From: Paracoccaceae bacterium | Lineage (GTDB): Bacteria; Pseudomonadota; Alphaproteobacteria; Rhodobacterales; Rhodobacteraceae | Direction: 5' to 3' | Assembly (NCBI GenBank): GCA_963662395.1 | Contig: OY759511.1 | Span: 4,100,820-4,164,819 of the forward strand | Length of the DNA stretch: 64,000 nucleotides | Shown here: one piece after another, positions 10,611 to 47,378 of the stretch | Position numbering within the stretch: the stretch's first letter is position 1 | Layout of the letters: each line of letters opens with the position of its first letter | Program-made: the position numbers and the translations under genes | The notes under the pieces: generated by a model | Databases searched by the model: none | What the model saw: the letters and a program-made list of their open reading frames with translations, nothing else | What the model was told of the DNA's origin: nothing

Positions 10611-10778
10611 GGCCTTTGCTCCATATTATGTTGTCGCTGGGGATGTCCCGACCGATGTTGAAACTCAGGTAGAGGTTGGCGTTGCTCCCCTCGAGCGCCA
10701 GGCTCGGGGTGTCAAATCCAAACAAGGAAGCAACACCATGAAAACGTCTACACCAACCACCACCCATGCCAGCACCAT

Positions 10779-12187
10779 GAGCTATTGTCAAAAGTGGTGT
10801 TCGGGGTGTCAGTCAAGCGGCGATCCTTGCTGGCTGATTGTCTGATTTATCGTCTGATGTTGCTTCCTCGACTACCTCGATACCATTTCTGAACTTCACT
10901 CCGGTGATGACCTTCCCCAGCTCCCTGAAGCCGTGCAGCCGTCTCCACCTCCCCTGAGCACACAGACCCAGCTTGAAGATCATGTGCAGCATGCCGTCAC
11001 GGGTCAGACATCCCTTTGAGCGGCTGGTCCGGTGGCGGATGGTGGCGAAGGTGGATTCGATCGGATTGGTGGTCCGGATACTCCGCCAGTGCTTGGCCGG
11101 GAAATCGTAGAAGGTCATCAATTCGTCCCGGTCCTTCTCGAGGCACCCGACCGCCTTCGGATACTTGTCCTCCCAGGTCTCGATGAAGAGATCGAACGCG
11201 GCCCCGGCATTCTTCTTCGTGTCGGCCTGCCAGATGTCGTGCAGCGCCTGCCTGGCCTTGGGCTGCACCGATTTCGGCAGGGCATTGAGCACATTTGCAG
11301 TCTTGTGCATCCAACATCGCTGATGGCGTGTCCCGGGCCAGATCTCCTCCTGTGCCGCCCAGAAGCCCATGGCGCCGTCTCCGATGGCCAGTTCAGGCGC
11401 ATTCATGCCGCGGGCCTTCAGCCCCACGAGGACCTCCCGCCAGCTCTGGGTGGATTCACGAACACCATCCTCTACCGCCAGCAGGTGCTTCTCTCCCTGG
11501 TCATTGACGCCGATGACCACCAGGCAGCAGAGCTTCGCATGTTCGGCCCTCAGCCCGCTATAGATGCCATCCACCCACGCATAGACCCAGCGATCCCTGT
11601 TCAGGGGCCTCTTGCGCCATTCCTCGTATTCCCGCCTCCAGGAGGCCTTGAGGCGGGAGACGGTGCTTGCAGACAATCCTTTCGCTTCGGGGCCCACCAG
11701 GGCCTCGAGGGCCGGGCCCATCTCGCCGGTGGAGACGCCCTTGAGATAGAGCCAGGAGACACTCGCCTCCAGCGAGCGTGACTTCCGCAGCCAGGGCGGC
11801 ACCAGGGCCGAGCGGAAGGCCACCGGCTCGCCGGCCCTGGAGCGGATCTTGGGTATGCGGACGGTGATCGGACCGATCCCGGTCTGGATTTCCCGCTCGG
11901 GCAGGTATCCGTTGCGCACGACACCGGCCCTTCCATCCTCGAGACGGCGGTCCTCGAGCCCGGCAAGCACTTCCTGAAGCTCGGCCTCCACGGCCAAGTG
12001 AACGATCTTCCTGGCCCCGGTGCGGATCAACTCTGCCAGCGGATCACGGGGCTTTGCGTGATCTGCAAGTTCGTATATATTCGTGGACATGGCGGTGTAC
12101 TCCCCGGTTGGTGTTTGTCGTGAATTCAATCAACCAGATATGCCGCCTGCCTTCAAACCCCCCGAACACCACTTTTGACAATAGCTC
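10779..12187 (-). mobile_element. IS256-family IS, copy A (1,409 bp)
   Basis: Termini GAGCTATTGTCAAAAGTGGTGTTCGGGG and its inverted copy. 9-bp target duplication CAGCACCAT at 10770-10778 and 12188-12196. Confidence 0.9.
10813..12129 (-). CDS. IS256-family transposase (438 aa)
   Basis: Intact ORF, identical at protein level to 17248-18564. Typical mutator-type blocks: WVYAWVDGIY, LCCLVVIGVN, RCWMHKTANVLN, TTNPIESTFATIRHR. Confidence 0.95.
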   Translation of the reverse strand: MNSRQTPTGEYTAMSTNIYELADHAKPRDPLAELIRTGARKIVHLAVEAELQEVLAGLEDRRLEDGRAGVVRNGYLPEREIQTGIGPITVRIPKIRSRAGEPVAFRSALVPPWLRKSRSLEASVSWLYLKGVSTGEMGPALEALVGPEAKGLSASTVSRLKASWRREYEEWRKRPLNRDRWVYAWVDGIYSGLRAEHAKLCCLVVIGVNDQGEKHLLAVEDGVRESTQSWREVLVGLKARGMNAPELAIGDGAMGFWAAQEEIWPGTRHQRCWMHKTANVLNALPKSVQPKARQALHDIWQADTKKNAGAAFDLFIETWEDKYPKAVGCLEKDRDELMTFYDFPAKHWRSIRTTNPIESTFATIRHRTSRSKGCLTRDGMLHMIFKLGLCAQGRWRRLHGFRELGKVITGVKFRNGIEVVEEATSDDKSDNQPARIAA

Positions 12188-17189: not shown

Positions 17190-18598
17190 GAGCTATTGTC
17201 AAAAGTGGTGTTCGGGGGGTTTGAAGGCAGGCGGCATATCTGGTTGATTGAATTCACGACAAACACCAACCGGGGAGTACACCGCCATGTCCACGAATAT
17301 ATACGAACTTGCAGATCACGCAAAGCCCCGTGATCCGCTGGCAGAGTTGATCCGCACCGGGGCCAGGAAGATCGTTCACTTGGCCGTGGAGGCCGAGCTT
17401 CAGGAAGTGCTTGCCGGGCTCGAGGACCGCCGTCTCGAGGATGGAAGGGCCGGTGTCGTGCGCAACGGATACCTGCCCGAGCGGGAAATCCAGACCGGGA
17501 TCGGTCCGATCACCGTCCGCATACCCAAGATCCGCTCCAGGGCCGGCGAGCCGGTGGCCTTCCGCTCGGCCCTGGTGCCGCCCTGGCTGCGGAAGTCACG
17601 CTCGCTGGAGGCGAGTGTCTCCTGGCTCTATCTCAAGGGCGTCTCCACCGGCGAGATGGGCCCGGCCCTCGAGGCCCTGGTGGGCCCCGAAGCGAAAGGA
17701 TTGTCTGCAAGCACCGTCTCCCGCCTCAAGGCCTCCTGGAGGCGGGAATACGAGGAATGGCGCAAGAGGCCCCTGAACAGGGATCGCTGGGTCTATGCGT
17801 GGGTGGATGGCATCTATAGCGGGCTGAGGGCCGAACATGCGAAGCTCTGCTGCCTGGTGGTCATCGGCGTCAATGACCAGGGAGAGAAGCACCTGCTGGC
17901 GGTAGAGGATGGTGTTCGTGAATCCACCCAGAGCTGGCGGGAGGTCCTCGTGGGGCTGAAGGCCCGCGGCATGAATGCGCCTGAACTGGCCATCGGAGAC
18001 GGCGCCATGGGCTTCTGGGCGGCACAGGAGGAGATCTGGCCCGGGACACGCCATCAGCGATGTTGGATGCACAAGACTGCAAATGTGCTCAATGCCCTGC
18101 CGAAATCGGTGCAGCCCAAGGCCAGGCAGGCGCTGCACGACATCTGGCAGGCCGACACGAAGAAGAATGCCGGGGCCGCGTTCGATCTCTTCATCGAGAC
18201 CTGGGAGGACAAGTATCCGAAGGCGGTCGGGTGCCTCGAGAAGGACCGGGACGAATTGATGACCTTCTACGATTTCCCGGCCAAGCACTGGCGGAGTATC
18301 CGGACCACCAATCCGATCGAATCCACCTTCGCCACCATCCGCCACCGGACCAGCCGCTCAAAGGGATGTCTGACCCGTGACGGCATGCTGCACATGATCT
18401 TCAAGCTGGGTCTGTGTGCTCAGGGGAGGTGGAGACGGCTGCACGGCTTCAGGGAGCTGGGGAAGGTCATCACCGGAGTGAAGTTCAGAAATGGTATCGA
18501 GGTAGTCGAGGAAGCAACATCAGACGATAAATCAGACAATCAGCCAGCAAGGATCGCCGCTTGACTGACACCCCGAACACCACTTTTGACAATAGCTC
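17190..18598 (+). mobile_element. IS256-family IS, copy B (1,409 bp), inverted relative to copy A
   Basis: Same termini as copy A. Its own 9-bp target duplication AGTGATCGA at 17181-17189 and 18599-18607. Confidence 0.9.
17248..18564 (+). CDS. IS256-family transposase (438 aa)
   Basis: Protein identical to 10813-12129. Confidence 0.95.
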   Translation: MNSRQTPTGEYTAMSTNIYELADHAKPRDPLAELIRTGARKIVHLAVEAELQEVLAGLEDRRLEDGRAGVVRNGYLPEREIQTGIGPITVRIPKIRSRAGEPVAFRSALVPPWLRKSRSLEASVSWLYLKGVSTGEMGPALEALVGPEAKGLSASTVSRLKASWRREYEEWRKRPLNRDRWVYAWVDGIYSGLRAEHAKLCCLVVIGVNDQGEKHLLAVEDGVRESTQSWREVLVGLKARGMNAPELAIGDGAMGFWAAQEEIWPGTRHQRCWMHKTANVLNALPKSVQPKARQALHDIWQADTKKNAGAAFDLFIETWEDKYPKAVGCLEKDRDELMTFYDFPAKHWRSIRTTNPIESTFATIRHRTSRSKGCLTRDGMLHMIFKLGLCAQGRWRRLHGFRELGKVITGVKFRNGIEVVEEATSDDKSDNQPARIAA

Positions 18599-18644
18599 AG
18601 TGATCGATGGCCAATCCTATCCTGTTGCTCGACTTAAATATATT

Positions 18645-19226: not shown

Positions 19227-21279
19227 AAGGCTCGGTCAGCGCCGCCGTCTGATGATCAAGCTGCCTGTCCTGCCCGTGCCGCCGTTTTCCGGTGCGTTGC
19301 GGCAGAGTTGGTGTCGGCGGTTCAGAATCACAATCTGACTTCAACAGGTCCAGACCACTCGGACTCCCGCGCATTGTTACACCCGTTTCTTCACGAACCG
19401 ACTCGCCAGCGGCCAGCCGATCAATCATATCTCGTTGCTGGCAAACGTGAAGTCAGGCATTAGAACGGTCAATGCTCGGCGTTGATCAACCAGGCGATCT
19501 GACAATCCCATGCCCATCCAGGAAAATGCCCTCAATTCCGCATTGACCGAAGCGCTTTCAACGCATGACCTTCATGCCACGCCGGAACAGACGAAGGCAA
19601 AGAGCGGCGCCAAGCGGTGTGACGTGCGGATTCGACGGCGGCACGGCGACCGCTATTTCACGGCTCTTGAGTGCAAGATTGGACAGAGCACGACGCAGCA
19701 GCAGGCGGCGGTCAAGGATGCACAAAGATGGCTCAAGGAGAGCGACTGCTGGAACGCGCTTGCTCTTTGCTATCCGGAGGAGCTGAGCGAGGACCGACAG
19801 GCGACATCACGGCAGAGGCTGGAAATTGCGAGCGACCTCCTGATGGTCAAGATCAGCAAGGCCGGCATGATCGGACGCTGGCGAGAGGGAAGTCTGGCCG
19901 ATCTGGCAATACTCGCCGACGATATCGGCGCCAACGAGACCTATGCGGTCACCGACATCCTGCAGCGGGCAATACTCGAGGCAAGCGAAGAACTGGATTC
20001 ATCAACAGGACAGGAACTGGCCGAAACGCTGGAACTTCCATGGGATCCGGGCAAGAGCGGCGTTGATCCGCGACCGGCGCGTATTGCCTGTCTTGTCATG
20101 GCCAACATGGCCTTGCTGCAGAATCGCATGCGAAGCGAGGGAATCAGGGTCGCCGGTCTCGACCCGCTCGTTGCGTTAAGAAATGCTCCGAACAAGCAGA
20201 CGGCACTGCTCGACAACTGGCAGCGAATCCGTGACATCGACTATGCACCGGTTGTCGACCCGGCCCTTGCAGTGCTCCAGAAGCTGCCGAGCGACCACCA
20301 TACCGACAATGTGCTCGGGGTTCTGATCGAGGCTGTACTCGAATGCGCGCCGAGGATCCGCGGACTGCAACTGGACCATGCCGGGCCACTCTATCACGGT
20401 CTGTTGCAGACGGCGCGATATGACGGCTCGTTCTATACGAGCACGGCTGCGGCAGTGTTGCTGGCCGAATTGGCAATGCCGCCCGATTGGTCCGTCGTGG
20501 GCGATGGCTGGTCAGATGCCAGCAGGCTGATGGATCTCAAGGTTTGTGATCCGGCATGCGGTACCGGAACATTGCTCATGGCTGCCGCACGGACGATCGA
20601 GGGACGGTTTCGATCAGCCGGCGGTGACGAGACCGATCTTTCCGTCTTGCATCTTGGTCTGATCGAGAATGTGCTGCATGGGCTCGACATCAACCGCCAT
20701 GCGATTCACCTGGCCGCTTCCATGCTGACGCTCAGCGCACCGAAGATCGACTACAACAAGATGAATCTCTACAACATGCGGCATGGCGTGATGCGGCATG
20801 GCGAGAGCGCCAATGAAGAAGTGCGCGCTGGCTCGCTCGACATTCTGATCGACAATGCCGGGTACCTATCGGTGCTGGTACCGGACAACAGCCAGGAGTT
20901 GGCGCCGGACACCAGCCAGCATCGGGTGACCGCGTCCGGATACGGGGAAGAGGCGCCTGACCTCGAAGGAACTTGTGACCTCGTCATCATGAACCCGCCA
21001 TTCACCCGGAATGACATCCGCAATCGCAGCCTGCCTGAGTCGGACCGCAAGAAGGTGCAGAAACACGAGATATCACTTGCAAGAAACGTCCGGGACAAAA
21101 TTCACCGTGATGCGATAGACCAATCGACAATAGGCACATTCTTCACTCCGATTGCCGATCGACTGCTGAATTGCAGGGGAGTCATGGCAATTGTAAAGCC
21201 ATTTACCGCGTGCACCAATGCCAGCGGCAAGAGTGAACGGAATCTCCTTACAGACCCCGACCGGTTTCACCTTGAATTA

Positions 21280-22149
21280 GGGCCTGTTGACAATCGGGTT
21301 GCGAATCAGCCGCGTCAATGCCATTTTCCCTGCAACGCACGCCGGAATGGCGGCACGAGCAGTATAGAGGCAAATGACGGATGAATACAGACAGGACGGT
21401 GCTCACCGACGCCATGTGGGCGCGGACCCGCCCCATGCTGCCCGGCAAGGCGACCGATCCCGGCGCCGCCCGGCAGTGGGCAGGCAGTTTCTCGAGGCAG
21501 TACTCTGGCGGGCCCGCCGGCTCGCCATGGCGCGACCTTCCCGAGAGTTTCGGAAACTGGAACAGTGTCTTCAAGCGCTTCCGCAGATGGGCCCTTTCGG
21601 GCATTTTCGAACAGGTATTCAACGAGCCCCCGGATGAGTTCGACCTCGAATACGTGTTCGTGGACGGCACCATCGTGCAGGCCCACCAGAAGGCGGCCGG
21701 CGCAAAAGGGGGACCTGCCGGCAGGGGATCGGACGCTCCCGGGGCGGCCTGACCAGCAAGATCGTGGCAATCGTGGACGCCCTTGGCTGTCTCGTGCGCT
21801 TCGTGATCCTTCCCGGACAGGCACATGATCTTCTCGGGGTGCCGGAACTTCTTGCAGACCTCCGCTACGGGGCCCTCATCGGCGACAGGGCATTCGATGC
21901 CGACTGGCTGATCGAGGAGATCGGGGAGAGCGGCGCCATGGCGGTGATTCCCGCGAGGCGCCACCGGACAGTGCCCCGGCATCATGATCCCGAGATGTAC
22001 AAGTGGCGACACCAGATCGAGAACTTCTTCGCAAGAATCAAGGAGTTCCGGGCAGTGGCGACCCGCTACGACAAGACCGACACGAGCTTCGCGGCGGCGA
22101 TTCATCTCGTCAGTGGCGTGGTTGCGGCAACATGATTGTCAACAGGCCC
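21280..22149 (+). mobile_element. IS5-family (IS427-group-like) IS, copy 1 (870 bp)
   Basis: Termini GGGCCTGTTGACAATC and GATTGTCAACAGGCCC. TA target duplication at 21278-21279 and 22150-22151. Confidence 0.85.
21381..22135 (+). pseudogene. orfA/orfB transposase of IS copy 1 (normally joined by a -1 frameshift near GCAAAAGGGGG); orfA damaged
   Basis: The orfB part (VDALGCLVRFVILPGQAHD...RYDKTDTSFAAAIHL) is intact. In orfA the conserved VGRQFLEAVLWR stretch reads in another frame (GAARQWAGSFSRQYSGGPAG), which implies two compensating indels. Confidence 0.7.
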
Positions 22150-23137
22150 TAGTCATTACGAGCCACGACAACCGCCGGATCTATTTCTCCGAAAACACGG
22201 ATATCCATGAATCCCTGATTGTCGCACGCCGTCCAGCACCGGAAACCCGAGAGCGGCAGACAGCATTCGTCTCTCTTGCCGAGAACCCCGCCCATGCAAG
22301 TGAAGCGCATTTTCTTGCGGAGGCAATCCGGAAGGCACTCGACGGCGATAACAGCCTCCTGGCCAATTTCGGCACCATTGCCTGGCGGAGCGCAGGCCAG
22401 CTTCGGGACCGTCCGTGGAACGCTGCGTGCTTCTATCACCAGAGCCTTGCCGATGCATATGACGGGATGCTCGACAATCCCGCACTGGCAGCCATCGGCA
22501 ATCTTGCGAAGGTCGAACCAGAAGGACGAAGGATCAGGGATGCGTTCGGCAAGGCTGCGAATCGACAGAACCCGGACATGCGGGCCCTCTGGCAGCACAA
22601 ATCCGCTCGCCAAACCAAAATGCGAACGGGTCCGGACGAGTTTCTGGTCGCCAAGGAGGGCAAGCACCCATACGCCCAAAAACTCTGGCAGAAACGGAGC
22701 CATCTTCTGCTTGCCAATCGCATGTGGCTGAATTTGACGCAAACGCCGGCGGTGTTCTCGGATGATCAGATTCTGGGGTCGGCCTTTGTCCCGGTGTCTC
22801 CGGTTGAAGGCGATAAAGAACAATTGTGCAAGGCGTGGTGCGTCTGGCTGAATTCGACATTCGGCATCATTGCCTTCCTGAACACACGCCAGAAGAAACT
22901 CACCTATCCGAGTTTTTCCCTTGATGGTCTGCGGTCGCTTCCGGTTCCGGATCCCGCCCGTTGCGACATCGAGGGTTTGGCAGCGACCTACGACCTGCAC
23001 GCGAACGACACCTTGAAACCGCTTCCCGAAATTCATGCTGATCCGGTACGTCATATTCTTGATGAGGCCGCCATCCGAGCAATTCCCGGGTTGTCCGAAA
23101 GCGATGTTGCAGGCTGGCGGCAGTCAATCTCGCTGGA

Positions 23138-23186
23138 GCCCAGTGTCAATAATGAGAAGGAACCGTTTCGGCTGACGTGATGTTGA
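23138..23186 (+). repeat. 49-bp perfect direct repeat, copy 1 (includes the last 13 codons and stop of the type IIG-like gene)
   Basis: GCCCAGTGTCAATAATGAGAAGGAACCGTTTCGGCTGACGTGATGTTGA is identical at 26969-27017. Confidence 0.95.
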
Positions 23187-23443: not shown

Positions 23444-23791
23444 ATGAGGAGGAGATCGTTGACGCGTGATCTCATGCACACCTTCTTGGACCTGGGTGAT
23501 GCCACGTCGCGCAATCTCGGGTTCTCGCATCGGAGCGACGTCTGGGTGAGCTACGGTGAGGAGACCATCACCGAGACCAATCTTCTGGAGATCAGGCGGC
23601 GGCATCCCCACCATGTCCGTGTCCGCACCTTCCCGAAGCAGATCGAGGCGACGAACGGCGCGGACTGGGAATGGCGCATCGTCGGCTTGAAGCGAACGGG
23701 CCCTGCTGCAAAAATTGGGAATTATATACTTGCCGGAACTGGGTCGCCTGCTCTAAGCGTGGTGCATGAAAAACGAATCGTCAAATCCTGA
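23444..23791 (+). CDS. Hypothetical ORF, possibly the 5' fragment of a longer gene
   Basis: MRRRSLTRDLMHTFLDLGD...EETITETNLLEIRRRHPHHVRVRTFPKQIEATNGADWEWRIVG looks protein-like, then degenerates before the stop at 23789-23791. Confidence 0.25.
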   Translation: MRRRSLTRDLMHTFLDLGDATSRNLGFSHRSDVWVSYGEETITETNLLEIRRRHPHHVRVRTFPKQIEATNGADWEWRIVGLKRTGPAAKIGNYILAGTGSPALSVVHEKRIVKS

Positions 23792-23939
23792 TAATCAGCC
23801 TAAGCTGAAAAAAGACCAGTCCACCCGTCCACCCGTCCACCCGTCCACCCGTCCACCCGTCCACCCGTCCACCCGTCCACCCGTCCACCCGTCCACCCGT
23901 CCACCCGTCCACCCGTCCACCCGTCCACCCGTCCAATGA
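23766..23939 (+). other. 57-codon leader frame running through the octamer repeat and ending at TGA 23937-23939
   Basis: ATG 23766 gives MKNESSNPDNQPKLKKDQ followed by STRPPVHP repeats. With 14 units it is +2/-1 out of frame with the methyltransferase. Confidence 0.6.
23821..23932 (+). repeat. Simple sequence repeat (CCACCCGT)x14, perfect
   Basis: Counted directly: 112 bp in 14 units, with no stop codon in any + frame. Confidence 0.97.
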
Positions 23940-23988
23940 AGCCAACTGGCTGAACCGCACCCTCTTCCACGGCGACAATCTGAAATTC

Positions 23989-25245
23989 ATGCGGGCCATG
24001 AACTCGGAGTCGGTGGACTTGATCGCCACCGACCCGCCGTTCAACAAGGGTCGTGACTTCCATGCCACGCCCGATAGCCTCGCCGCCGGGGCCAAGTTCC
24101 AGGACAGGTGGTCATGGGAGCGGGATGTTCACCAGGAATGGGTTGACCAACTGCAGGATGACTACCCCGCGGTATGGGCCGTCATTGACTGGTCTCGAAT
24201 GACCTATGGCGATGACTTGGGCGCATTCCTGTGTTTCATGGCCGTTCGTCTTCTGGAAATGCACAGGCTACTCAAGCCGACTGGCAGCATCTATCTGCAC
24301 TGCGATCCGACCGCGTCACACTATCTGAAAACGCTAATGGACGCAGTGTTCGGAAATAAGCAATTTCGAAATGAAATTGTGTGGTGCTACTCGACTTCTG
24401 GACGAGCCAAAACCTGCTTTGCCCACAAACACGACATCATCCTGTATTACGCCAAGAGCAGGAATGCGTATTGGTCTGGATACAGGATCCCGGTCACGGA
24501 TAAATATCTCGACAGCCATTACAGGCAGATTGACGAGGACGGCAACCGATGTCGGATACGCACCGACCATGGCAAAACAAGAATATATTACCCGGATGAC
24601 GGGATGACATGTAACGATTGGTGGACGGAGTTTCCATATGTCAACTCTCAAGCCAAGGAACGATATGGCTACCCGACGCAAAAGCCGCTGAAACTCTATG
24701 ACCGCATCATTGAAGCATCCAGCAAGGAGGGTGACATCGTCCTTGATCCGTTCGCCGGTTGCGCCACAACCCTTGTCAGTGCCGAAAAACTGCAACGGGA
24801 ATGGGTAGGAATTGACATCTGGGATGATGCACACAAGGCCGTGATTGACCGTCTGAATGCAGATGTGATTGGCACTATCGGGATGTTTGGCAAAGTGCAT
24901 CTTGAAACCAAGCCGCCCCTTCGCACCGATGATAAGCAAACAGCCGCGCCCTTCCTGCGGGTCAAGCAGCGCGTGAAGGAACCGGAAGGGCAGAAGTGGA
25001 CACGGGCGCAGATGTACGAGCACTTGCTAGGCCAGCACGGCCCCCGATGTCAGGGCTGCGACCGTGCATTTGATGATCCGCGCTACCTTGAACTCGACCA
25101 CAACACGCCCCGCAGTGACGGCGGGCTCAATCACATATCGAACCGCATTTTGCTTTGCAGCCCTTGCAACCGGCTAAAATCGAACACATTCACGCTGTCG
25201 GGGTTGAGGCTGGAGAACATGAAGCGCGGATTCATGGCGAAATAG
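23989..25245 (+). CDS. N4/N6 DNA methyltransferase (pfam01555-type) fused to a C-terminal HNH nuclease domain; coordinates start at the first in-frame ATG, which lies inside the conserved N-terminal block
   Basis: SVDLIATDPPFNKG gives the DPPF motif and SIYLHCDP...FRNEIVWCY follows. Near the C-terminus of the MTase part is DIVLDPFAGCATT (FxGxG). The C-terminus YLELDHNTPRSDGGLNHISNRILLCSPCNRLKSN is an HNH motif. The frame is open upstream to 23809. Confidence 0.85.
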   Translation: MRAMNSESVDLIATDPPFNKGRDFHATPDSLAAGAKFQDRWSWERDVHQEWVDQLQDDYPAVWAVIDWSRMTYGDDLGAFLCFMAVRLLEMHRLLKPTGSIYLHCDPTASHYLKTLMDAVFGNKQFRNEIVWCYSTSGRAKTCFAHKHDIILYYAKSRNAYWSGYRIPVTDKYLDSHYRQIDEDGNRCRIRTDHGKTRIYYPDDGMTCNDWWTEFPYVNSQAKERYGYPTQKPLKLYDRIIEASSKEGDIVLDPFAGCATTLVSAEKLQREWVGIDIWDDAHKAVIDRLNADVIGTIGMFGKVHLETKPPLRTDDKQTAAPFLRVKQRVKEPEGQKWTRAQMYEHLLGQHGPRCQGCDRAFDDPRYLELDHNTPRSDGGLNHISNRILLCSPCNRLKSNTFTLSGLRLENMKRGFMAK

Positions 25246-25254
25246 GAGGGCGCA

Positions 25255-25530
25255 ATGACCCATAGGAGACAGGTGATGACAGAAGACGAAATGCGTAGCG
25301 AAATAGACCGTCTACAAGGCGAACTATCGGCGGCGACCGCCTGCATCGGCGACATTTTCCAAATCATCATCAATCTCGGTGGCGATGACATGCATGGTGT
25401 CGTTCTTGGAAAGATCAACAGTCGCAGGATTGAGATTGGTGCACTCGACATCAAAGGACCCGATTGGCGGGCTGGCATCCAACGCTTCAATGATCGCCTT
25501 GCGAAAGTCCTCACGCGTGATGAAAGTTGA
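25255..25530 (+). CDS. Hypothetical 91-aa protein downstream of the methyltransferase, tentative
   Basis: AGGAGG lies 6 nt before ATG 25255 and overlaps the MTase stop. First codon positions are purine-rich. A codon-aligned antisense ORF (25324-25533) competes with it. Confidence 0.35.
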   Translation: MTHRRQVMTEDEMRSEIDRLQGELSAATACIGDIFQIIINLGGDDMHGVVLGKINSRRIEIGALDIKGPDWRAGIQRFNDRLAKVLTRDES

Positions 25531-25590
25531 CATGGCACAATGCTCCGACTAGATTGGTTTCCAGCCGGAAGGTCACGTCATTGAATTTTG

Positions 25591-25632
25591 CGCCCCGCCC
25601 AGTCGCCAAACTTGCGGGGCGTTGTGCTTTTT
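25591..25632 (+). terminator. Possible rho-independent terminator
   Basis: Stem CGCCCCGC (25591-25598) pairs with GCGGGGCG (25614-25621) and is followed by TTGTGCTTTTT. The 15-nt loop is long, so this is only tentative. Confidence 0.3.
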
Positions 25633-26614
25633 AGCCCCTTGCGCCAGAGGCCAATCCGTTGTCGGCCTTGAGCGTCTTGTATGTCAGGCGCTTCCCGACC
25701 ATTCCACTGACAAGATAACCCATCTGGTCAACAGTGTTCAAGTCTCGAACGTTGTGACGACCTGCAAAATCGGCGACATAGCGATCAAGATGCTTGACGC
25801 TGAATTTGTGATAAACGCCCTTGTGCGCTCGCTTCAGGACACTCCAGAAACTCTCGATCCCGTTGGTGTGCGCCATTTCCCGGACGTATTCTCCAGCCGA
25901 GTGATTGACGCTCTCATGCGCCCTGTCCATCCCCACATAGCCGCGCCCATCATCGGTGTAGACCTGCGCTTCCGGCTCGGTGCGGCCTTCCACGAAACCC
26001 TGCAGGGTCGCGGCCTTCGTGTCGGTCACAACCGCGGCGGACACCCGGTTGGTATCCCGATCCTTCAATCCGGCAACAATTGACTTGCCGACAGCTCCCC
26101 GGCCGGCATTCAGCTTCTTGTCGGCGTGCTTGTTCTTCTCAACGCCGCCGATATAGGTTTCGTCCGCCTCGACCGGCCCGCCGAACGGCGGCTCGTCATC
26201 ATCTTCGAACGCCTTGCGAATGCGCTGGAGCATGAACCACGCGGTTTTCTGCGTCACGCCCAGATCCCGATGCAGCTTCATGCTGGACACGCCCTTGAGG
26301 CTGGTGAGGTGCATGTAGATGGCGATGGCCCAATCCTGGAAGCTGATCTTCGACCGCTCCAGAAGCGTCCCGATGCGGACACTGAAATGCTGTTTGCAAT
26401 CGCGGCAATGGTAGGGTCGGCGCTCGGCTCCCTTGTTCTCTGTCGTGTTGACCGATCCGCAATGCGGGCAATGGCGGCCATTCGGCCATATCTGCGCTTC
26501 GAACCATTTTCTGGCTGCATCTTCGGTCGGGAATTTCTGCATCAATTCCTTGACCGTCATTCCTTGCCGCTCTGATCTTCCGGGTGCTGTCGCCATGTCC
26601 GTGTTTCCCTTCAC
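25631..26614 (-). CDS. IS1595-family transposase (327 aa from the first ATG; may start at MTVKELMQKF)
   Basis: N-terminal zinc ribbon WPNGRHCPHCGS...YHCRDCKQHFS. DDE part VEADETYIGG, VYTDDGRGY, HTNGIESFWSVLKR. Element ends not resolved. Confidence 0.9.
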   Translation of the reverse strand: MKGNTDMATAPGRSERQGMTVKELMQKFPTEDAARKWFEAQIWPNGRHCPHCGSVNTTENKGAERRPYHCRDCKQHFSVRIGTLLERSKISFQDWAIAIYMHLTSLKGVSSMKLHRDLGVTQKTAWFMLQRIRKAFEDDDEPPFGGPVEADETYIGGVEKNKHADKKLNAGRGAVGKSIVAGLKDRDTNRVSAAVVTDTKAATLQGFVEGRTEPEAQVYTDDGRGYVGMDRAHESVNHSAGEYVREMAHTNGIESFWSVLKRAHKGVYHKFSVKHLDRYVADFAGRHNVRDLNTVDQMGYLVSGMVGKRLTYKTLKADNGLASGARG

Positions 26615-26728
26615 AAACGAATATAGGGATCGTCGGCTATTCCGTCAAGTATATAATCCCCCAAAAATTGCTCTCAGTTCTCCTTGTGAGCGAGGTCGCG
26701 GTAGATTGTGCTTCTTGGAGACTCTCCC

Positions 26729-26872
26729 ATGACCCATGACTTCACGTGGCGGCTTTTCCGGGGCGAGATCATTCCGTGGGCAGTTCAGTGGTATTGCCGA
26801 TATGACGTCGGCTATCGTGACCTCGAGGAAATGCTGGAAGAGCGCGGCATCAAGGTTGACCACACCGTGTTC
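26729..26872 (+). pseudogene. IS6-family transposase N-terminal fragment
   Basis: MTHDFTWRLFRGEIIPWAVQWYCRYDVGYRDLEEMLEERGIKVDHTV parallels the IS26-type N-terminus (F.GRHF..DIILWAVRWYCKYGISYRELQEMLAERGV.VDHST). Homology is then lost. Confidence 0.55.
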
Positions 26873-26968
26873 AAGGGCTTCGTGGCGATGGGTGCCCTCC
26901 GGAAGAAGCAGGCCAAGGCCTTCCAGCTTCAGCCCGGCATCAGGGGCGAAGTGCGTCTTGTCGAACGT

Positions 26969-27017
26969 GCCCAGTGTCAATAATGAGAAGGAACCGTTTC
27001 GGCTGACGTGATGTTGA
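26969..27017 (+). repeat. 49-bp perfect direct repeat, copy 2
   Basis: Identical to 23138-23186. Confidence 0.95.
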
Positions 27018-27167
27018 GCAAGTTGATGTCCCTGCATGGAGCGGAGCTCAAGCAAATCGCGATCCAGCAAAGATTTTGACGAAAGGCGGAGTCAGACCAC
27101 ACCCCGGGCAACTCCGGCAAATTCTTGCAACTGAGCCCGGAATGACAGTGAGACGGCAGTACCACCC

Positions 27168-28802
27168 ATGACTTTGAAAGACGACTTGCTAAGAAAAGGC
27201 TATCTGCCCGAGAACTTGCCACCTGCCTTTACGACAAAGCTAATTGCAGACCATTTCTTGGAACAGCCATCAAGCAACTTTCACACGCGACTCGGAACCC
27301 CACTTAGAGCTGCCACATACAATGCATCCAAACGCGGTCTGACCCGACGTGTTTTTTCTGCAGTGCATCCTGCCACCGCCCATAACATGGCAAAATTCGT
27401 CTCCGATCGCTGGGACGAAATCACGGTGTTCTTGTCGCAGAGCAATACAAGCTTCTCGATTCCTGAACATACTGAAGATACAGACCGCGCGCTTGTTATC
27501 AAATCACACATGGCACTTGAAAAGGAGAAATATAAACGCTTGTCCGCATGCCGTTTCATTGCAGGGACTGATATCGCTCGATTTTACCACTCGATATACA
27601 CACATTCGATCCCATGGGCCTTTCATGGAAAGGCTAATGCAAAAGCGGACCGCCGCCTGCGATCACAGCAGGTGTTTTTCAATCGCGCCGACGCCGTGAT
27701 ACGCAATGGCCAAGACGGTCAAACCGTGGGTATCCCGGTTGGGCCAGACATGTCCAGAGTCTTTGCCGAGGTGATCGGAGTCGCAATTGACAAGGAGTTC
27801 GAACAACGACGTGAAGGCATCGATTGCGAGGTAATCCGCCATGTGGATGATGTCTGGATTGGTGCTAATTCGCATGCGGACGCAGAACAAGCGTTGTCGC
27901 TATACCGGGAGGCAATCCGGGAATTCGAGCTGGACATCAACGAGAGTAAAACCGGCATATTTGCGACGGAGTTCAGCTTTTCGGACTATTGGCCAACCGA
28001 GATTTCAAATCAGATCGAGTTCGCCATCAATTCACCCAAACCCCGAGCAAATGACCGCCTGCGCTCGACGCTTGAGCATGTCTTTGCCATGGCTGTTTCA
28101 CGTAACGATGAGGGTATCCTCAAATATGTTCTGCGCTACGTCGATCAACACAATCGGAAATGGAATTGGGATGTCGTTGAACCATTCCTGAAGCGGATGG
28201 CAGTTCATTTTGGTCACACGATCGACTACATAGCGCGTATCTTGATTTGGCGGCAGCTTACCCGTGGCGATCTCGACCTTAATGGCTGGAGTCGAATCAT
28301 GGGCGAAGTTCTTGGCAAGCATGGACGCCTTGGCAACGACAGCGAGGTATGCTGGACCATTTATGCTCACCATCACCTGGACGTGAAGGTTAGCCACGAA
28401 GCCGCAAAGCATATCGTCAGGAACTGCGGCGCACTTTCTATCGTTGCACTGCTTAATACCATCGATCGTGCCGGTAATAATCTTGACATCTTTAAGGATG
28501 CGTTTGAGCGGCTAAAGGCGGAAAATGACTCCGGGCGATACTGGCCTGTGTTTTTGGAATGGAAAACAAAGCATTGGCCAAGACATGTTGACATCGTATT
28601 ATCCAATCCGACAATCAAGGCATTGCACGAAAGCGGTGCCCATGTCTACGATCTAGAGACCCTGCCGGCCGTTTTCCAGAATGTCGAAAAGGTTGAGTTC
28701 GAGAAAGTTGCCAGTGCCATAGAAATACTATCGGAAATTTACGGCCACGGAGAAGAAAATGATGATGAGTTTCTAATAGATGGCATGGATTCAGCTATTT
28801 GA
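27168..28802 (+). CDS. Reverse transcriptase of the defence-associated UG/Abi type with a helical C-terminal extension (544 aa)
   Basis: RT motifs GTDIARFYHSIYTHSIPWA (motif A-like), GIPVGPDMSRVFAEV (motif B), VIRHVDDVWIG (xVDD motif C) and ELDINESKTGIF. About 270 aa of helical sequence follow. Lower GC. No msr/msd-like repeats recognised upstream. Confidence 0.8.
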   Translation: MTLKDDLLRKGYLPENLPPAFTTKLIADHFLEQPSSNFHTRLGTPLRAATYNASKRGLTRRVFSAVHPATAHNMAKFVSDRWDEITVFLSQSNTSFSIPEHTEDTDRALVIKSHMALEKEKYKRLSACRFIAGTDIARFYHSIYTHSIPWAFHGKANAKADRRLRSQQVFFNRADAVIRNGQDGQTVGIPVGPDMSRVFAEVIGVAIDKEFEQRREGIDCEVIRHVDDVWIGANSHADAEQALSLYREAIREFELDINESKTGIFATEFSFSDYWPTEISNQIEFAINSPKPRANDRLRSTLEHVFAMAVSRNDEGILKYVLRYVDQHNRKWNWDVVEPFLKRMAVHFGHTIDYIARILIWRQLTRGDLDLNGWSRIMGEVLGKHGRLGNDSEVCWTIYAHHHLDVKVSHEAAKHIVRNCGALSIVALLNTIDRAGNNLDIFKDAFERLKAENDSGRYWPVFLEWKTKHWPRHVDIVLSNPTIKALHESGAHVYDLETLPAVFQNVEKVEFEKVASAIEILSEIYGHGEENDDEFLIDGMDSAI

Positions 28803-29075
28803 GACAACACACGAGTTTCAGTTGTAGGATGGATGGACGGAATTCCCGCTCCCATTACCCGAACTCTGCTAAACCCAGCTGAACTGTCTACTCCTGAAGA
28901 TCACCCTTCACTGCGCCCGCTTGGTAGGCAAAACGGGGCCCGGATCCAGGGATGTCCCGATGGCACGAACACTGGCTGACCTGCTTGTAGTTTTCCCCTG
29001 TGATCCTGTAAGCCACCTGCGCGTCCATACGAAAAGAGATTGACCATCGCTGGTCTCAACTTAGTTGGAGTAACA

Positions 29076-29627
29076 ATGCCGACAAGAACACTCATTGCAT
29101 GCCTCACGTGCCTGTTGGTCATCGAAAGCGCAGCCCAGGCCCAGGAGAGGGATGAAGTCGATTTGTCACGCTATCAAGTCGTTGAGGAAGGCGAACGCAT
29201 CAGACTGCTCAGCGAGGTCAATAGGCTGGAAGACAACTACAAGGAATTGATTGTAGCGGGTGACTGTAACGCTGCTCTGCCGACCATAGCGACTTACTAC
29301 GAGGCCGCCAATGTGACTGCCAACATTCTGAGGCAGGGACTGGAGCCGTTCTACGATGCCAGTAGGGACGACAGGGGGTCCGTGTCTACAGACCGCCAGT
29401 TGATCAAAGAATTGGCCGCAGCTGAAGACTTGGCAAACGACTTGATAAGACGAAGAAACGCAGCTTGGGTTGATGAGGCCAAATGTCTCTTGGTGATTGG
29501 CGACAGAAGTGCGGCGGTCACACGACTCTTCCGTGCGCTCGACTTTATTGGCACAGGTAATGAACATAGGAATCTCTGGAATGAGGCTCGGAGACTGCTT
29601 TGGGCGGAGATTGGATACAATCCATAG
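29076..29627 (+). CDS. Hypothetical secreted helical protein (183 aa)
   Basis: GGAG lies 5 nt before ATG 29076. Signal-peptide-like MPTRTLIACLTCLLVIESAAQAQ. The rest is helical, TPR-like by eye only. Confidence 0.5.
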   Translation: MPTRTLIACLTCLLVIESAAQAQERDEVDLSRYQVVEEGERIRLLSEVNRLEDNYKELIVAGDCNAALPTIATYYEAANVTANILRQGLEPFYDASRDDRGSVSTDRQLIKELAAAEDLANDLIRRRNAAWVDEAKCLLVIGDRSAAVTRLFRALDFIGTGNEHRNLWNEARRLLWAEIGYNP

Positions 29628-30705
29628 CTACAGAATGCGGCAATTTCCCGCTTGATTTATGGCTGGGCTGGCACCGGAAACATTAAGACCTTCTTGGTGC
29701 CACAATGTTCAGCGAAATGGCTCTCAATTCAGGAAAACTGGCAATTGTAGAGCGTCAATCAGGATGACAACCTGACGCCGCGGCAAGAACGATATTTTCC
29801 GCATCTCCCGCCGGTTGCAAGCAGTTTTTCACCGCTCCCGATTGTCGCCGATCTCCCCCGGACACCCGCCGTGACAAGAACTTCCAAGGCCTCCGGCGGC
29901 CAGGGCGCTCGCCGCCCCTGGAGCCCAGGCACTGCCCGATAGGGCCCTGGCTTCTGCGGCCCGGATCGGCCCTTGCGGGTGCGCCGCTCTGGCGGCCCGT
30001 CCGGCTCCGTGTCCCACCTTGCAAACCGATGCGGTATGGCCATCTGCAGGATCATGTGAATGGATTGCACACAGGCGTCAGGCAACGGCAGTGCGCCAAC
30101 CCCTCACCACCGCAAGGTCATGCCCACACCCACGCCATGCACCGGCGCCGCGGCCCCATCCTCCCGCCTCGTGGCCTCAAGACCGAGCGAGAGGTCGGGT
30201 GCTCCCTTCTCCGGGGTGAGTCGCCAGCCGAGCGTATAGTCGCGCGAGGCGTCATCCATGCGCAGCCTTGCATGCGGGGCGATGGTGAAGCGGCCGGCAA
30301 AAGGGCCGGCAGCCCGTAGGCGGCCTCGGCGGTGGTGGCAGTGCCGCCGCCTTCCTGCCGCCGCAGCGCCTCAGGCATGAACAGGGCATCGACGCCGCCC
30401 GTGGCCTTGCCCGCATCCTGGCGCAGCGAGACCGAGAGACCACGTGCCGAGGCAGGCTCGGGATCGAAGATGAAGCTGGCCGCCAGGCCGTTCTCCTCGA
30501 AGTCATCGTCGTCATGGGCAATCAGCTTGCGGGCGGACAAATCCATGGCAAAGCCTGATGCCGGGTCGCGGAAGCCAAGGGACCCGCCGACCTCGATGCC
30601 GGCCCCTCGCTCGGCATCGCCGCCATCATGGCGGATACCTGCCTCCAGCCCGGGGGTGAGGATGGCACCGCTCTCAAGACCGATCTGCCAGGAGGCCTCC
30701 AGCCC

Positions 30706-33071
30706 GACCCGCCGCCTTTCAACAGGACACGGTCAACTCGAGGTTATTGACGTTATAGCCTTGGTTCGATGAGAATCGGTCTTCGACATTACGCCCCCGA
30801 GACGGTTGACTGGCTGAAGGCGACGCCTGGATCCGGGGACTGCACCCGGACTTCCCTGGCGCGCGAGCCGTGCGAGCGCGGGGACTGGCGGAACGCGAAG
30901 GGCGAGCCGTGCCTCGCCTCTGCCCGTGCCGTTCTGCCGAAGCTTTCCTCTTCCCTCGGCCTGCCTCTGCCGGAGGCCCGGCCGATGGGAGCCGTCAGCG
31001 TGGAGTCGCTGGTCCCGTCCACCGACTGTCCGGATTTGCATCCGTCATGCACGCTCGCCGACATCGGCCGGCTCGACGTGACTCCGCTCGCCGATGCGCA
31101 GAAGGGCCTGGCGCGCTCGATGATGGCCACGCACCATCCCGGGGGCGACGCCGCCTGTCCCGGCGGGCGCATCCGCTACTGGCTCCGGTCGTCCGAACAC
31201 GGCATCCTCGGCGGCTTCACCGTCGGCGCCGCCTCCTGGCACCACAAGGCGCGCGACCTCCATATCGGCTGGTCGCAGGCGGCGCCGGACGCCAATATCG
31301 GGCGCGTGGTCGACAACGATCGGTTCCTGATCCTTCCCGGGGTGCGCGTCCACGGGCTTGCCTCCTTCGCGCTTTTTCTGCTCGCCCTTCGCGTTGCCGG
31401 TGACCGGGAGGGGCGCTGCGGTGTCCGCCCGTGCCTGGCCTGCAGCCATGTGGGCCCGGCGCATACGGGGTTCAGCTACCGGGCGGCGGGCTGGACGTGC
31501 TGCAGGGAGCCGAAGCCGGGCAAGGGGCCGCGGGTGCATGTGAAGCCGCTGTCGGCGGGATGGCGGGAGGCACTCGGGCGTGAGCCGCAGCGGGTGATCG
31601 GCGCCGGCCCGCCTCTCGTGGCAAGGGAGGATCCGACATGGGCGGAGCGCGAATACGGACGCAGCGGGCACAGCGACGGGCGCGTGCGCGAACGCCTGGT
31701 GATGATGGGCGGGGCCTGGTGTGCGCGCCCCGGAGCGCCGCTTCCGGTGATCTTTCCCGGCGAGGCGGAGCAGAAGGCGGCGTACAGGTTCCTGTCCAAT
31801 CCGAGGGTCGGCGTGCAGGACATTCTTGAGCCCCACCAGGAGGCGATGACCGAGCGCTGCCGCCGCCGGCCCGTCGTACTCGCGGTGCAGGACACGACGG
31901 TGCTGAACTACAGCGGGCTGAAGGCGACGGAGGGTCTTGCCCCCATCGGCGGCGGCGCATCCGGCAGCACCGGGCTGGCGGCGCATTTCGGCGTCGCCTT
32001 CAGCGAGGGCGGCTGCGCGCTGGGGGTCTTCCATCTCGATGCCGACTTCCGCCCGGTGGAGAAAGGGACGGCGGTGGAAGGCGAGGAAAGCGGACGCCGG
32101 CTGGACGGTCTCGGCAAGGCTGCCGAGCTGGCGGCCGCCTGTGAGCGGACCCGCGTCGTGGCCCTCTGCGACCGGGAGGGCGACATCTGGGCGCTCATGT
32201 CGGAAGGCTGCGCCGCTGCCGACCTTCCCGACGGCGCCGGCCTTCTGGTCCGCGCCAGCCGTTCGGCCAGGCGGCGGGTCCTCACGGCGGAAGGCGGGCT
32301 GGAGGAGCTGCTCAAGCACGCGGCCGGGCTTGATGTCGCCGCCGTGAAGAGGATCGACATCGAAGCCTGCGGCGGGCCCCGGAAGCGCAAGGGACGCAAG
32401 GGCGTGAAGCTCGAGCTGCGGGCCGGGTTGGTCGATCTCGTCCCGCCTCAGGACCTGCCGAAGGACACGGCCCCCCTGCGCATGCTCGCCGTGCGCGTGC
32501 TTGAGCCCGACCCGCCGAAAGGAAAGAAACCGCTCGACTGGCTGCTCCTGACCACCGAGGGCGAGCCGACGGAGCAGAACGCGCTGCGTATCGCCGGGTG
32601 GTACGAGAAGAGATGGCTGATCGAGGAGTGGTTCGCGGCCCTGAAGACCGGGACGCGGATCAAGGACCGCAGGCTCAACGCCGCCGACGATTTGCGCCGG
32701 TGCCTCGCCTTCGACGCCGTCACCGCCTGCACCGTCATGTCCGTCGAGCGTCTCGCGCGGAGCGCGCCGGACACGCCAGCGCGAACAGCCGTCCATGTGG
32801 ACGAGATCCATGTCCTCGCCGTGCACATGGCCAAGCCGAACCATCGAAAACAGCGCGACCCGCCAGACCCGCAACAGACGATCGCAGACTTCGCAGTCAA
32901 CACCGCCCGCCTCGCCGGATTCATCCCGTCAAGGCGACAGCCCATACCGGGAACTCACAAACTCTGGGAAGGATACCTCATCCTGTCACTCTTCGTCGAA
33001 AATTACCGCGCCTTCCGAGATTACACCAACGTCGAGTCAACAGTGTACCATTGAAAGGCCGGAGGCGGGTC
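30706..33071 (+). mobile_element. Tn5/IS50-like (IS4-family) IS, ~2.37 kb, boundaries approximate
   Basis: Imperfect inverted termini GACCCGCCGCCTTTCAACAGGACACGG (30706-) and CAGTGTACCATTGAAAGGCCGGAGGCGGGTC (-33071). It splits the autotransporter frame. No clean target duplication found. Confidence 0.6.
30769..33054 (+). CDS. 761-aa fusion: N-terminal DUF4338 (DruA-like) domain plus Tn5-like DDE transposase
   Basis: GGRIRYWLRSSEHGILGGFTVGAASWHHKARDLHIGWSQAA...VVDNDRFLILPGVRVHGLAS fits the DUF4338 consensus. WAEREYGRSGHSDGRVRERLV...KAAYRFLSNP...LAVQDTTVLNYSG...YEKRWLIEEWFAALKTGTRI is Tn5-type. No stop or start signal lies between the two parts. Confidence 0.8.
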   Translation: MRIGLRHYAPETVDWLKATPGSGDCTRTSLAREPCERGDWRNAKGEPCLASARAVLPKLSSSLGLPLPEARPMGAVSVESLVPSTDCPDLHPSCTLADIGRLDVTPLADAQKGLARSMMATHHPGGDAACPGGRIRYWLRSSEHGILGGFTVGAASWHHKARDLHIGWSQAAPDANIGRVVDNDRFLILPGVRVHGLASFALFLLALRVAGDREGRCGVRPCLACSHVGPAHTGFSYRAAGWTCCREPKPGKGPRVHVKPLSAGWREALGREPQRVIGAGPPLVAREDPTWAEREYGRSGHSDGRVRERLVMMGGAWCARPGAPLPVIFPGEAEQKAAYRFLSNPRVGVQDILEPHQEAMTERCRRRPVVLAVQDTTVLNYSGLKATEGLAPIGGGASGSTGLAAHFGVAFSEGGCALGVFHLDADFRPVEKGTAVEGEESGRRLDGLGKAAELAAACERTRVVALCDREGDIWALMSEGCAAADLPDGAGLLVRASRSARRRVLTAEGGLEELLKHAAGLDVAAVKRIDIEACGGPRKRKGRKGVKLELRAGLVDLVPPQDLPKDTAPLRMLAVRVLEPDPPKGKKPLDWLLLTTEGEPTEQNALRIAGWYEKRWLIEEWFAALKTGTRIKDRRLNAADDLRRCLAFDAVTACTVMSVERLARSAPDTPARTAVHVDEIHVLAVHMAKPNHRKQRDPPDPQQTIADFAVNTARLAGFIPSRRQPIPGTHKLWEGYLILSLFVENYRAFRDYTNVESTVYH

Positions 33072-46187: not shown

Positions 46188-46508
46188 GGAATCGGGAGAC
46201 AGGGCCGGTTTCGGGCCATTTCCCGCCAATCGGCCCGGTTTCGGCCGATCTTCACGAGGCAGGCATCGGGCAGATACGCAATCCGCAGGAAATGTCCGGC
46301 GAGCCTCGCACCCCGGACATCAGGCCGGGTGCCAAATCCGGGGACGACATCCCGGCCCTCCTGCCGGAACCGGTGCCGGGAGCAGGAAAGCTGCTGCCGG
46401 ATAGCCGACAATCTCCCGGACCGGGGTCAGATCCGCCGGTTACCGGCGCTCCGGACGGGCGTATTCGGGGTTGGACCTTGCCGAAAGGGGGTTCTCTGGC
46501 GGGTGCTA
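46188..46508 (+). mobile_element. Internally deleted remnant of the ISNCY/IS1182-like element
   Basis: 46188-46400 parallels the 5' leader and first ~35 codons of 15521-downstream (QIRNPQEMSGEPRTPDIRPGAKSGDDIPALL versus MRQIRNPQQMFGEIRIEEIRLDAKSRDDIPALL). It ends with GGTTCTCTGGCGGGTGCTA, matching the 13881 terminus. Confidence 0.5.
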
Positions 46509-47378
46509 GGGCCTGTTGACAATCATGTTGCCGCAACCACGCCACTGACGAGATGAATCGCCGCCGCGAAGCTCGTGTCGGTCTTGTCGTAGCGGGTCGC
46601 CACTGCCCGGAACTCCCTGATCCTTGCGAAGAAGTTCTCGATCCGGTGGCGCCACCGGTACATCTCCCGGTCATGATCCCGGGGACTTGTCCGGTGGCGC
46701 CTCGGGGGAATCACCGCCTCTGCCCCGCTTGCCTCGATTTCTGCCAGCAGCCAGTCGGCATCGAATGCCCTGTCGCCGATGAGGGCTCCGAAGGGGAGGT
46801 CCTCGAGAAGAGCCGGCACGCCGGCCAGGTCATGTGCCTGTCCGGGAAGGATCACGAAGCGCACGAGGTAGCCAAGGGCGTCCACCACGGTCACGATCCT
46901 GCCGGTCAGGCCGCCCCGGGAGCGTCCGATCCCCTGCTTCGAGGTCCCCCTTTTGCGCCGGCCGCCTTCCGGTGCGCCTGGACGATGGTGCCGTCCACGA
47001 AGATGTATTCGAGGTCGAACTCATCCGGGGCTCGTTGAATACCTGTTCGAAAATGCCCGAAAGCGCCCATCTGCGGAAGCGCTTGAACACGCTGTTCCAG
47101 TTTCCGAAATGCTCCGGAAGGTCGCGCCATGGCGATCCGGTGCGGATCCGCCACAGTACCGCCTCGAGAAACTGCCTGCCCACTGCCGCGGTGACACCGG
47201 GATCGGTCGCCTTGCCGGGCAGCATGGGGCAGGTCCGCGCCCACATGGCGTCGGTGAGTACCGTCCTGTCTTCATTCATCCGTCATTTTCCTCACCTGCT
47301 CGTGCCGCCATTCCGGCGTGCGTTGCAGGGAAAATGGCATTGACGCGGCTGATTCGCAACCCGATTGTCAACAGGCCC
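46509..47378 (-). mobile_element. IS5-family (IS427-group-like) IS, copy 2 (870 bp)
   Basis: Same termini as copy 1. TA duplication at 46507-46508 and 47379-47380. Confidence 0.85.
46523..47279 (-). pseudogene. orfA/orfB transposase of IS copy 2; orfA carries an uncompensated frameshift
   Basis: The N-terminus is intact (MNEDRTVLTDAMW...VGRQFLEAVLWRIRTGSPWRDLP...FNEP). DEFDLEYIFVDGTIVQAH then continues in another frame. The orfB part is intact. Confidence 0.7.

Follow-up and report, generated by a model that had tools for sequence, protein, structure and literature searches.

Class 1 systems of the UG/Abi reverse transcriptases (RTs) consist, according to published accounts, of the RT alone and act without RNA. 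One of these families is UG12, which was named DRT6 by Mestre et al. 2022; its Sphingopyxis member is reported to protect E. coli against phages (T5, ZL-19) in a manner that requires the RT active site (PMC9226505). This enzyme is also reported to synthesize template-independent DNA that is covalently bound to the protein and to cause abortive infection; it is activated by the T5 DNA-binding protein ORF55, with toxicity on co-expression, is toxic in an sbcB knockout, and loses its function upon mutation of D223/D224 (PMC12783706). The enzyme is hexameric by cryo-EM (9wy8), and recent reviews still regard its product chemistry, mechanism, and regulation as incompletely resolved. DRT4 (UG15) of E. 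coli (PDB 9vdo/9vdv/9l9s) belongs to a sister class 1 family and is a hexamer that carries out template-independent, protein-primed synthesis of single-stranded DNA (ssDNA), triggered by T5 ORF55 and restrained by exonuclease I (ExoI). Its priming residue, Tyr125, is absolutely conserved in DRT4. Here we analyzed a 64,000-nt stretch of the genome of a Paracoccaceae bacterium (assembly GCA_963662395.1, contig OY759511.1, positions 4,100,820 to 4,164,819 of the forward strand; hereafter the window), in which the gene at 27168–28802 on the + strand very probably encodes a full-length, intact, stand-alone member of DRT6 (UG12), a class 1 UG/Abi RT.

An earlier note, made from the sequence alone, had described this gene as an orphan defence-type RT with a helical C-terminal extension and had left its class undecided. 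The open reading frame (ORF) and the RT motifs that it quoted were found where it had placed them. The ORF starts with ATG, encodes 544 aa plus the stop codon, and contains DIARFYHSIYTHS at T134–S147 (including D135), GIPVGPDMSRVFAEV at G188–V202, HVDDVWIG at H225–G232 (including D227 and D228), and INESKTG at I257–G263. The start codon is right, the N-terminus MTLKDDLLRKGYLPENLPP agreeing with the N-termini of homologues. In Pfam, only the RT core was recognized, with RVT_1 covering residues 118–271 at 38.3 bits (cut-off 29.6). The low GC content that had been noticed by eye was also confirmed: the gene has a GC content of 0.495 and a third-position value (GC3) of 0.53, compared to 0.65–0.72 outside the low-GC island in which it lies.

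The class of the RT was decided by searching the 5027 models of the PADLOC set. The best model was Drt6 PDLC03748 (E 7.8e-139, 462 bits), which aligned residues 4–523 with profile positions 4–497 of 511, and the runner-up was a Drt4 model with 351 bits, placing Drt6 ahead by 110 bits. All 30 aligned homologues also matched PADLOC Drt6, with the lowest E-value among all families. Among PDB sequences, the top match was 9wy8, with E-values of 4.9e-53 for the single sequence and 1.3e-81 for the family profile, followed by the DRT4/UG15 chains with 9e-32 and 8.5e-45, respectively. BLASTP gave 30.5% identity and 188 bits to DRT6, compared to 25% and 128 bits to DRT4, and the same order was obtained for 38 relatives. 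The entry 9wy8 comprises six chains and carries the Foldseek label “Cryo-EM structure of the hexameric DRT6”. Its chain is an MBP fusion; the VDD pair numbered D621/D622 corresponds to DRT6 D223/D224, and it is with this pair that D227/D228 of the window RT align.

The family to which the RT belongs is large. A word-indexed search at E ≤ 1e-10 returned 534 clusters of homologues, the closest being 71% identical, and a profile search at E ≤ 1e-30 returned 1166 representatives at 50% identity, a number that probably takes in sister families. Together with the PADLOC and Pfam scores, these homologues put the match far outside what chance would produce. A scan of genomes for relatives yielded 49 genome loci, mostly from Alphaproteobacteria, and a search of plasmids found no close relative, the best match being 26–29% identical. 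The window RT is an ordinary new member of a known single-gene anti-phage family, DRT6 having already been defined, validated, and solved, and the “orphan” status noted earlier is the normal condition of such a system. The window gene alone adds little, as public databases already contain hundreds of members of its subclade.

A structural model of the window RT was built with AlphaFold2 on 30 homologues (predicted local distance difference test (pLDDT) 81, pTM 0.83), and it comprises an N-terminal domain, the RT core, an all-helical domain at residues 275–513, and a disordered tail at residues 521–544. When the model was compared with known structures by Foldseek, the top match was again DRT6 (9wy8_A, E 1e-22), with TM scores of 0.79 for the query and 0.86 for the target, followed by UG15/DRT4 (about 0.75), AbiK (0.55), and Abi-P2 (0.48). 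The PADLOC, NCBIfam, PDB sequence, and fold comparisons together bear out the reading of the gene product as a class 1 UG/Abi RT of the defence type that stands alone and whose C-terminal domain is helical.

Four parts can be delimited along the gene, all on the + strand. The N-terminal domain (aa 1–113; 27168–27506) is conserved in both DRT6 and DRT4, the alignment to 9wy8 starting at residue 5 and that to DRT4 at residue 10 of the window RT, and it holds the invariants S54-K55-R56-G57, R60, R61, and P68 in the 30-homologue alignment. The RT fingers and palm, containing the RVT_1 match, occupy aa 114–272 (27507–27983) and include the codons of the catalytic residues D135 (27570–27572) and D227–D228 (27846–27851). 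The all-helical, alpha-repeat-like C-terminal domain (aa 275–520; 27990–28727) was delimited from the AlphaFold2 model and is covered by both the Drt6 profile and the superposition on 9wy8; its helices run from H275–287 through H508–513, with pLDDT mostly 79–96, which agrees with the roughly 270 helical residues that had been expected beyond the RT core. The disordered acidic tail (aa 521–544; 28728–28799; pLDDT 25–30) begins shortly before a near-invariant tyrosine, Y525, whose codon lies at 28740–28742.

Compared with the Sphingopyxis sp. DRT6 (UG12; PHR10625.1, PDB 9wy8), the window RT is of the same length class and has the same domain order, ending in an acidic disordered tail; both are single-gene systems, and the catalytic xVDD is aligned with D223/D224. 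The two proteins differ in that they share only about 30% identity, that the large, mainly alphaproteobacterial subclade of the window RT has RHVDDVWIGA where the Sphingopyxis protein has FRYVDDFYFF, and that the tail of the window RT is shorter and lacks an aromatic end. DRT4 likewise has the domain order of the window RT, at 25% identity, and the column of its priming Tyr125 is occupied by H114 in the window RT. AbiK, Abi-P2, and AbiA are likewise class 1 UG/Abi RTs; their C-terminal domain is helical, and their DNA synthesis is protein-primed and untemplated. However, they are far more distant, with PADLOC scores of 109–120 bits that cover the N-terminal half to about residue 312 and TM scores of 0.4–0.55, and they also differ in their oligomeric states and priming sites.

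The window RT looks functional, judging from its sequence, because the catalytic aspartates are kept and just 2 of 170 strongly conserved columns differ. The alignment check of these aspartates proposed in the earlier note found D135, D227, and D228 all present and invariant among 30 sequences. In an alignment of 112 sequences, the two deviations among the 170 columns conserved at ≥ 90% (family median, four) were both conservative, namely N73 for D and E315 for D. The column of Y128, which is Cys in the window RT, was considered as a lost conserved tyrosine and was dropped when its conservation proved to be below 90% in the larger alignment.

Other classes of RT were also compared with the window RT. 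For group II intron RTs and maturases, the model TIGR04416 reached 38 bits (cut-off 300), the TM score to the GsI-IIC RT was 0.37, and Rfam detected no intron RNA at E ≤ 1. For retron RTs, NF038233 reached 21.9 bits (cut-off 235), the TM score was about 0.32, and neither an Rfam match nor flanking inverted repeats were found. A 49-nt repeat located before the RT superficially resembles the variable-repeat/template-repeat layout of diversity-generating retroelements (DGRs); it is the sole nearby repeat, a short and perfect copy with no adenine-specific differences, and the enzyme itself is unlike DGR RTs (TM 0.28). The model scores and the fold thus uphold the earlier view that the gene belongs to none of these three classes.

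The assignment to DRT6 has to be weighed against four other explanations, two of which would give the RT a partner. The earlier note had raised the possibility of a non-coding RNA in 27018–27167 or 28803–29075, which would make the RT work in the way that the class 2 systems DRT2, DRT3, DRT9, and DRT10 work, with an RNA encoded in its flank. Such a layout could be read into the 150 nt upstream and 273 nt downstream of the RT gene that are non-coding, and into the 49-nt repeat, with its small hairpin, that lies shortly before the gene. However, the searches for it were negative throughout. An Rfam search of 24000–31000 at E ≤ 1 returned two chance-level matches, neither of them in an RT flank; the upstream and downstream flanks folded no better than shuffled sequences (z −0.57 and +0.78, respectively); no inverted repeats or mismatched repeats were found near the RT gene; and neither flank matched any of the 49 related genome loci by blastn. 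In an all-against-all comparison, the 300-nt flanks of the relatives were alike only between near-syntenic loci, and at the nucleotide level the window resembles its closest relatives only from the start codon (27166–27168) to a point within the ORF. As the class 1 relatives also function without RNA, we consider a flank-encoded RNA highly improbable. The second suggestion of the earlier note, that a small secreted protein encoded at 29076–29627 is conserved with the RT, fared no better. The small ORF exists as described, with a good GGAG ribosome-binding site and a signal peptide-like N-terminus, and a two-gene system could be proposed from the shared orientation, the 273-nt gap, the comparably low GC content, and the position of both genes on one unique assembly unitig (26988–29917). 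Against this, all 49 related genome loci lack a homologue of the small protein within 5 kb of their RT. It has only nine homologues among 5.8 billion proteins, and those checked adjoin Gabija-like OLD/UvrD genes and a transposase, or CTP synthase, and never an RT; the protein itself has no PADLOC or Pfam match. A two-gene system accordingly has hardly any probability in our judgment.

The remaining two explanations concern the identity and the state of the RT itself. Several PADLOC “Drt4” models match it over its full length with 335–351 bits, and the DRT4 structures are its second-best fold matches, so that membership in DRT4 (UG15) had to be considered in place of DRT6. It is nevertheless most unlikely, considering the lead of the Drt6 model, the score of 201 bits with the NCBIfam Drt4 equivalog NF041749 (cut-off 450), and the greater closeness of both sequence and fold to 9wy8. 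In addition, the column of the absolutely conserved DRT4 priming tyrosine is a near-invariant His in the family of the window RT. The other explanation is that the gene, although it looks intact, is silent or decaying, a remnant without current function in a degrading graveyard of mobile elements. In favor of this are the type IIG-like gene upstream, which is split by an 874-bp element, the IS1595-family transposon and IS6-like fragment just upstream of the RT, the lack of a promoter-like site upstream on the + strand, and the missing aromatic C-terminal end, possibly lost by a +1 insertion before TAA TAG. On the other side stand the full-length ORF, the retention of 168 of 170 strongly conserved columns, which is above the family median, and the sequence itself, which five runs of the isolate type contain without indels and sponge metagenomes contain in part. 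We therefore regard a functionless remnant as improbable, although less so than the other three alternatives, and an intact stand-alone DRT6 as the preferred reading.

The neighborhoods of the relatives were compared across the 49 genome loci and three metagenome loci. No neighbor was common to these loci, save unrelated defence systems at varying positions. The only recurrent neighbors were a SIR2 and HerA pair, which directly adjoins the DRT6-like RT in 10 of the 49 loci (L005, L013, L014, L016, L022, L024, L026, L027, L038, and L041), co-oriented with the RT and located upstream of it in four loci and downstream in six. Because the pair is upstream in some loci and downstream in others, SIR2-HerA is taken as a separate known system, and its recurrence may reflect either co-residence in islands or a preferred pairing. 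A relative with 70% identity lies between an ArdA-like gene and Hachiman (HamA and helicase), with a STAND NTPase farther on, and another close relative is located behind transposases. The relatives thus occupy defence islands beside unrelated systems. For the window RT, no RNA or protein partner need be sought, and the annotation “hypothetical RT” can give way to the name of a single-gene anti-phage system.

The analysis shows that the window RT belongs to the DRT6 family, has its catalytic residues intact, shares the fold, and has neither a partner gene nor a partner RNA; its oligomeric state, priming, product, trigger, and phenotype we infer from Sphingopyxis DRT6 and DRT4. By analogy with these two systems, the RT would most likely assemble as a hexamer, and DNA synthesis would start on one of its own tyrosines and proceed with no RNA or DNA template to yield ssDNA. 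In an uninfected cell, a host 3ʹ-5ʹ exonuclease (ExoI/SbcB in E. coli) would remove the product DNA. In an infected cell, a phage ssDNA-binding protein would shield the product, which would then accumulate and lead to cell death or arrest, that is, abortive infection.

Several observations weigh against an active DRT6 of this kind. The identity to the sole studied DRT6 is about 30%, so that the biochemistry is extrapolated to a subclade known from sequence. The public runs that hold the sequence are of unlabelled type, and they show flat depth with unitigs breaking at repeats (26988, 29917), as expected of DNA assemblies, and give no transcript evidence. A search of 26984–27167 for a sigma-70-like promoter on the + strand found none. 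The surroundings are rich in insertion sequences (IS) and a neighboring gene is disrupted. The tail of the window RT is atypical of the family, ending in ...DSAI and not in an aromatic residue. Finally, the accessible literature, the cryo-EM paper (BBRC 2025) aside, does not establish which residue DRT6 uses for priming, and the DRT4 priming tyrosine has no counterpart in the window RT.

This last point drew attention to the C-terminal tail. The Tyr125 column of DRT4 is H114 in the window RT, a near-invariant His in its family, and Phe in 9wy8, and since the DRT4 priming tyrosine has no counterpart in DRT6, DRT6 must prime elsewhere. The sole fully invariant tyrosine is Tyr144, located within an RT motif that is common to DRT4. 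The best-conserved tyrosine after it is Y525, at the start of the tail, which becomes a candidate for the priming role, given that the family lacks the tyrosine used by DRT4. The DRT6-family proteins examined were numbered P0001–P0279. Y525 belongs to a motif, AIE-x5-Y, which 112 of 113 homologues share and which recurs in both subclades sampled from genomes, and the tail following this motif has a median length of 17 residues and a median D/E content of 61%. An aromatic residue closes the tail in 79 of 113 close homologues and 58 of 118 representatives at 50% identity; of 306 background ORFs, 17 end in one. The ending ...[DE]x0-1[ILVMA]P[FYLW] occurs in fourteen representatives, in forms such as DDDIPF, DDLPF, and EIPF. 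The tail often ends in ...DD(I/L)PF, the C-terminal tip motif with which bacterial SSB docks exonuclease I and other partners. The validated DRT6 likewise has a long poly-D/E tail containing a tyrosine; the last two residues of chain 9wy8 could not be read and are not “PF”.

The tail of the window RT is atypical in this respect (GHGEENDDEFLIDGMDSAI). It reads GHGEENDDEF-LIDGMDSAI, that is, ...DDEF followed by nine extra residues, and the DNA from the Phe codon of DDEF onward reads TTT C TAA TAG. Speculatively, a one-base insertion may have extended the window ORF beyond an ancestral ...DDEF end; the sequence at the tail was identical across all runs examined. A literature search that did not take in the DRT6 cryo-EM paper found no account of the DRT6 tail. 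We tentatively propose that the DRT6 tail might be an undescribed functional module, in which Y525 could serve for priming and the acidic tip could tether the exonuclease that curbs the DNA product or act as bait for SSB-like triggers of phages, the window RT being a natural variant with a masked tip; this proposal is doubtful as a whole. A useful by-product at the family level is the combination of features seen in DRT6, which lacks the DRT4 priming tyrosine and has a conserved tail tyrosine with an acidic tail resembling the SSB tip.

The low-GC island around the RT gene spans about 23 kb (7000–30000), has a GC content of 0.50–0.60, compared to 0.65–0.72, and contains several mobile elements. 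The context is of the island type, with a methyltransferase-HNH gene, a type IIG-like gene, IS elements, and an integrase, and is best explained by horizontal acquisition of the RT gene into this IS-rich, low-GC island. A tyrosine integrase gene (5609–6625) marks the left edge of the island, and no tRNA gene was found anywhere in the window. The earlier note had placed the RT next to restriction-modification genes, which is partly right: an N6/N4 methyltransferase-HNH fusion gene (23989–25245) and a split type IIG-like methyltransferase gene (19510–23180) are present upstream, but an IS1595-family transposon and an IS6-like fragment intervene before the RT.

The transposon occupies about 2.95 kb (23717–26661), with its transposase gene at 25631–26614 on the − strand and the methyltransferase-HNH fusion gene as a passenger. 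Its termini are the imperfect inverted repeats GGGAATTATATACTTGCCGGAA and GGGGATTATATACTTGACGGAA, that is, GGG(A/G)ATTATATACTTG, and it is flanked by an 8-bp target duplication, CAAAAATT, at 23709–23716 and 26662–26669. The empty site was found in a sponge-metagenome contig (run X6), which joins ...GGGCCCTGCTG straight to 26662. Inside the transposon, about 15 tandem copies of the octamer ACCCGTCC at 23815–23943 end about 45 nt short of the methyltransferase-HNH gene, and this array could allow phase-variable expression of that gene.

The 49-nt direct repeat mentioned above is perfect, with 23138–23186 and 26969–27017 showing no mismatches. Its first copy consists of the last 14 codons of the type IIG-like gene, the stop codon, and six further nucleotides, and its second copy stops 150 nt short of the RT gene. 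Between the copies lies a 3.8-kb block composed of the IS1595-family transposon, 0.5 kb of unassigned sequence, and the N-terminal fragment of an IS6-like transposase (26729–26870). The duplication suggests a former arrangement in which the RT lay next to the type IIG-like gene.

The ORFs 19510–21384 and 21984–23180 together make up a single type IIG/PglX-like methyltransferase gene, split in two by the 874-bp element (21278–22151), which has 25-nt terminal inverted repeats. In one related locus (L029), the homologue of this gene is continuous and is also located about 2 kb from a DRT6-like RT. A second copy of the 874-bp element, inverted and 89–98% identical, lies at 46506–47385. An 82-nt match to the right end of the element (window 22070–22151) was found at 5873–5954 of L053 and 2333–2414 of L054, where, in an unrelated metagenome contig, it sits about 50–75 nt upstream of the gene for a small secreted protein homologue.

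An ORF at 7923–8966 has a weak JukB-like match (E 8.9e-13). An IS256-family (Transposase_mut) element is present as two inverted copies of 1410 nt that are 100% identical (10778–12187 and 17190–18599) and enclose 5.0 kb in a composite transposon-like layout, and a third copy, 79–87% identical, lies near the window end (62899–63943). Downstream of the RT, an IS4-family transposase gene (30769–33054) encodes a product with an N-terminal DruA-like (PF14236) domain; because the word depth of this element in the runs is about 10–20 times that of its flanks, it is multi-copy in the genome.

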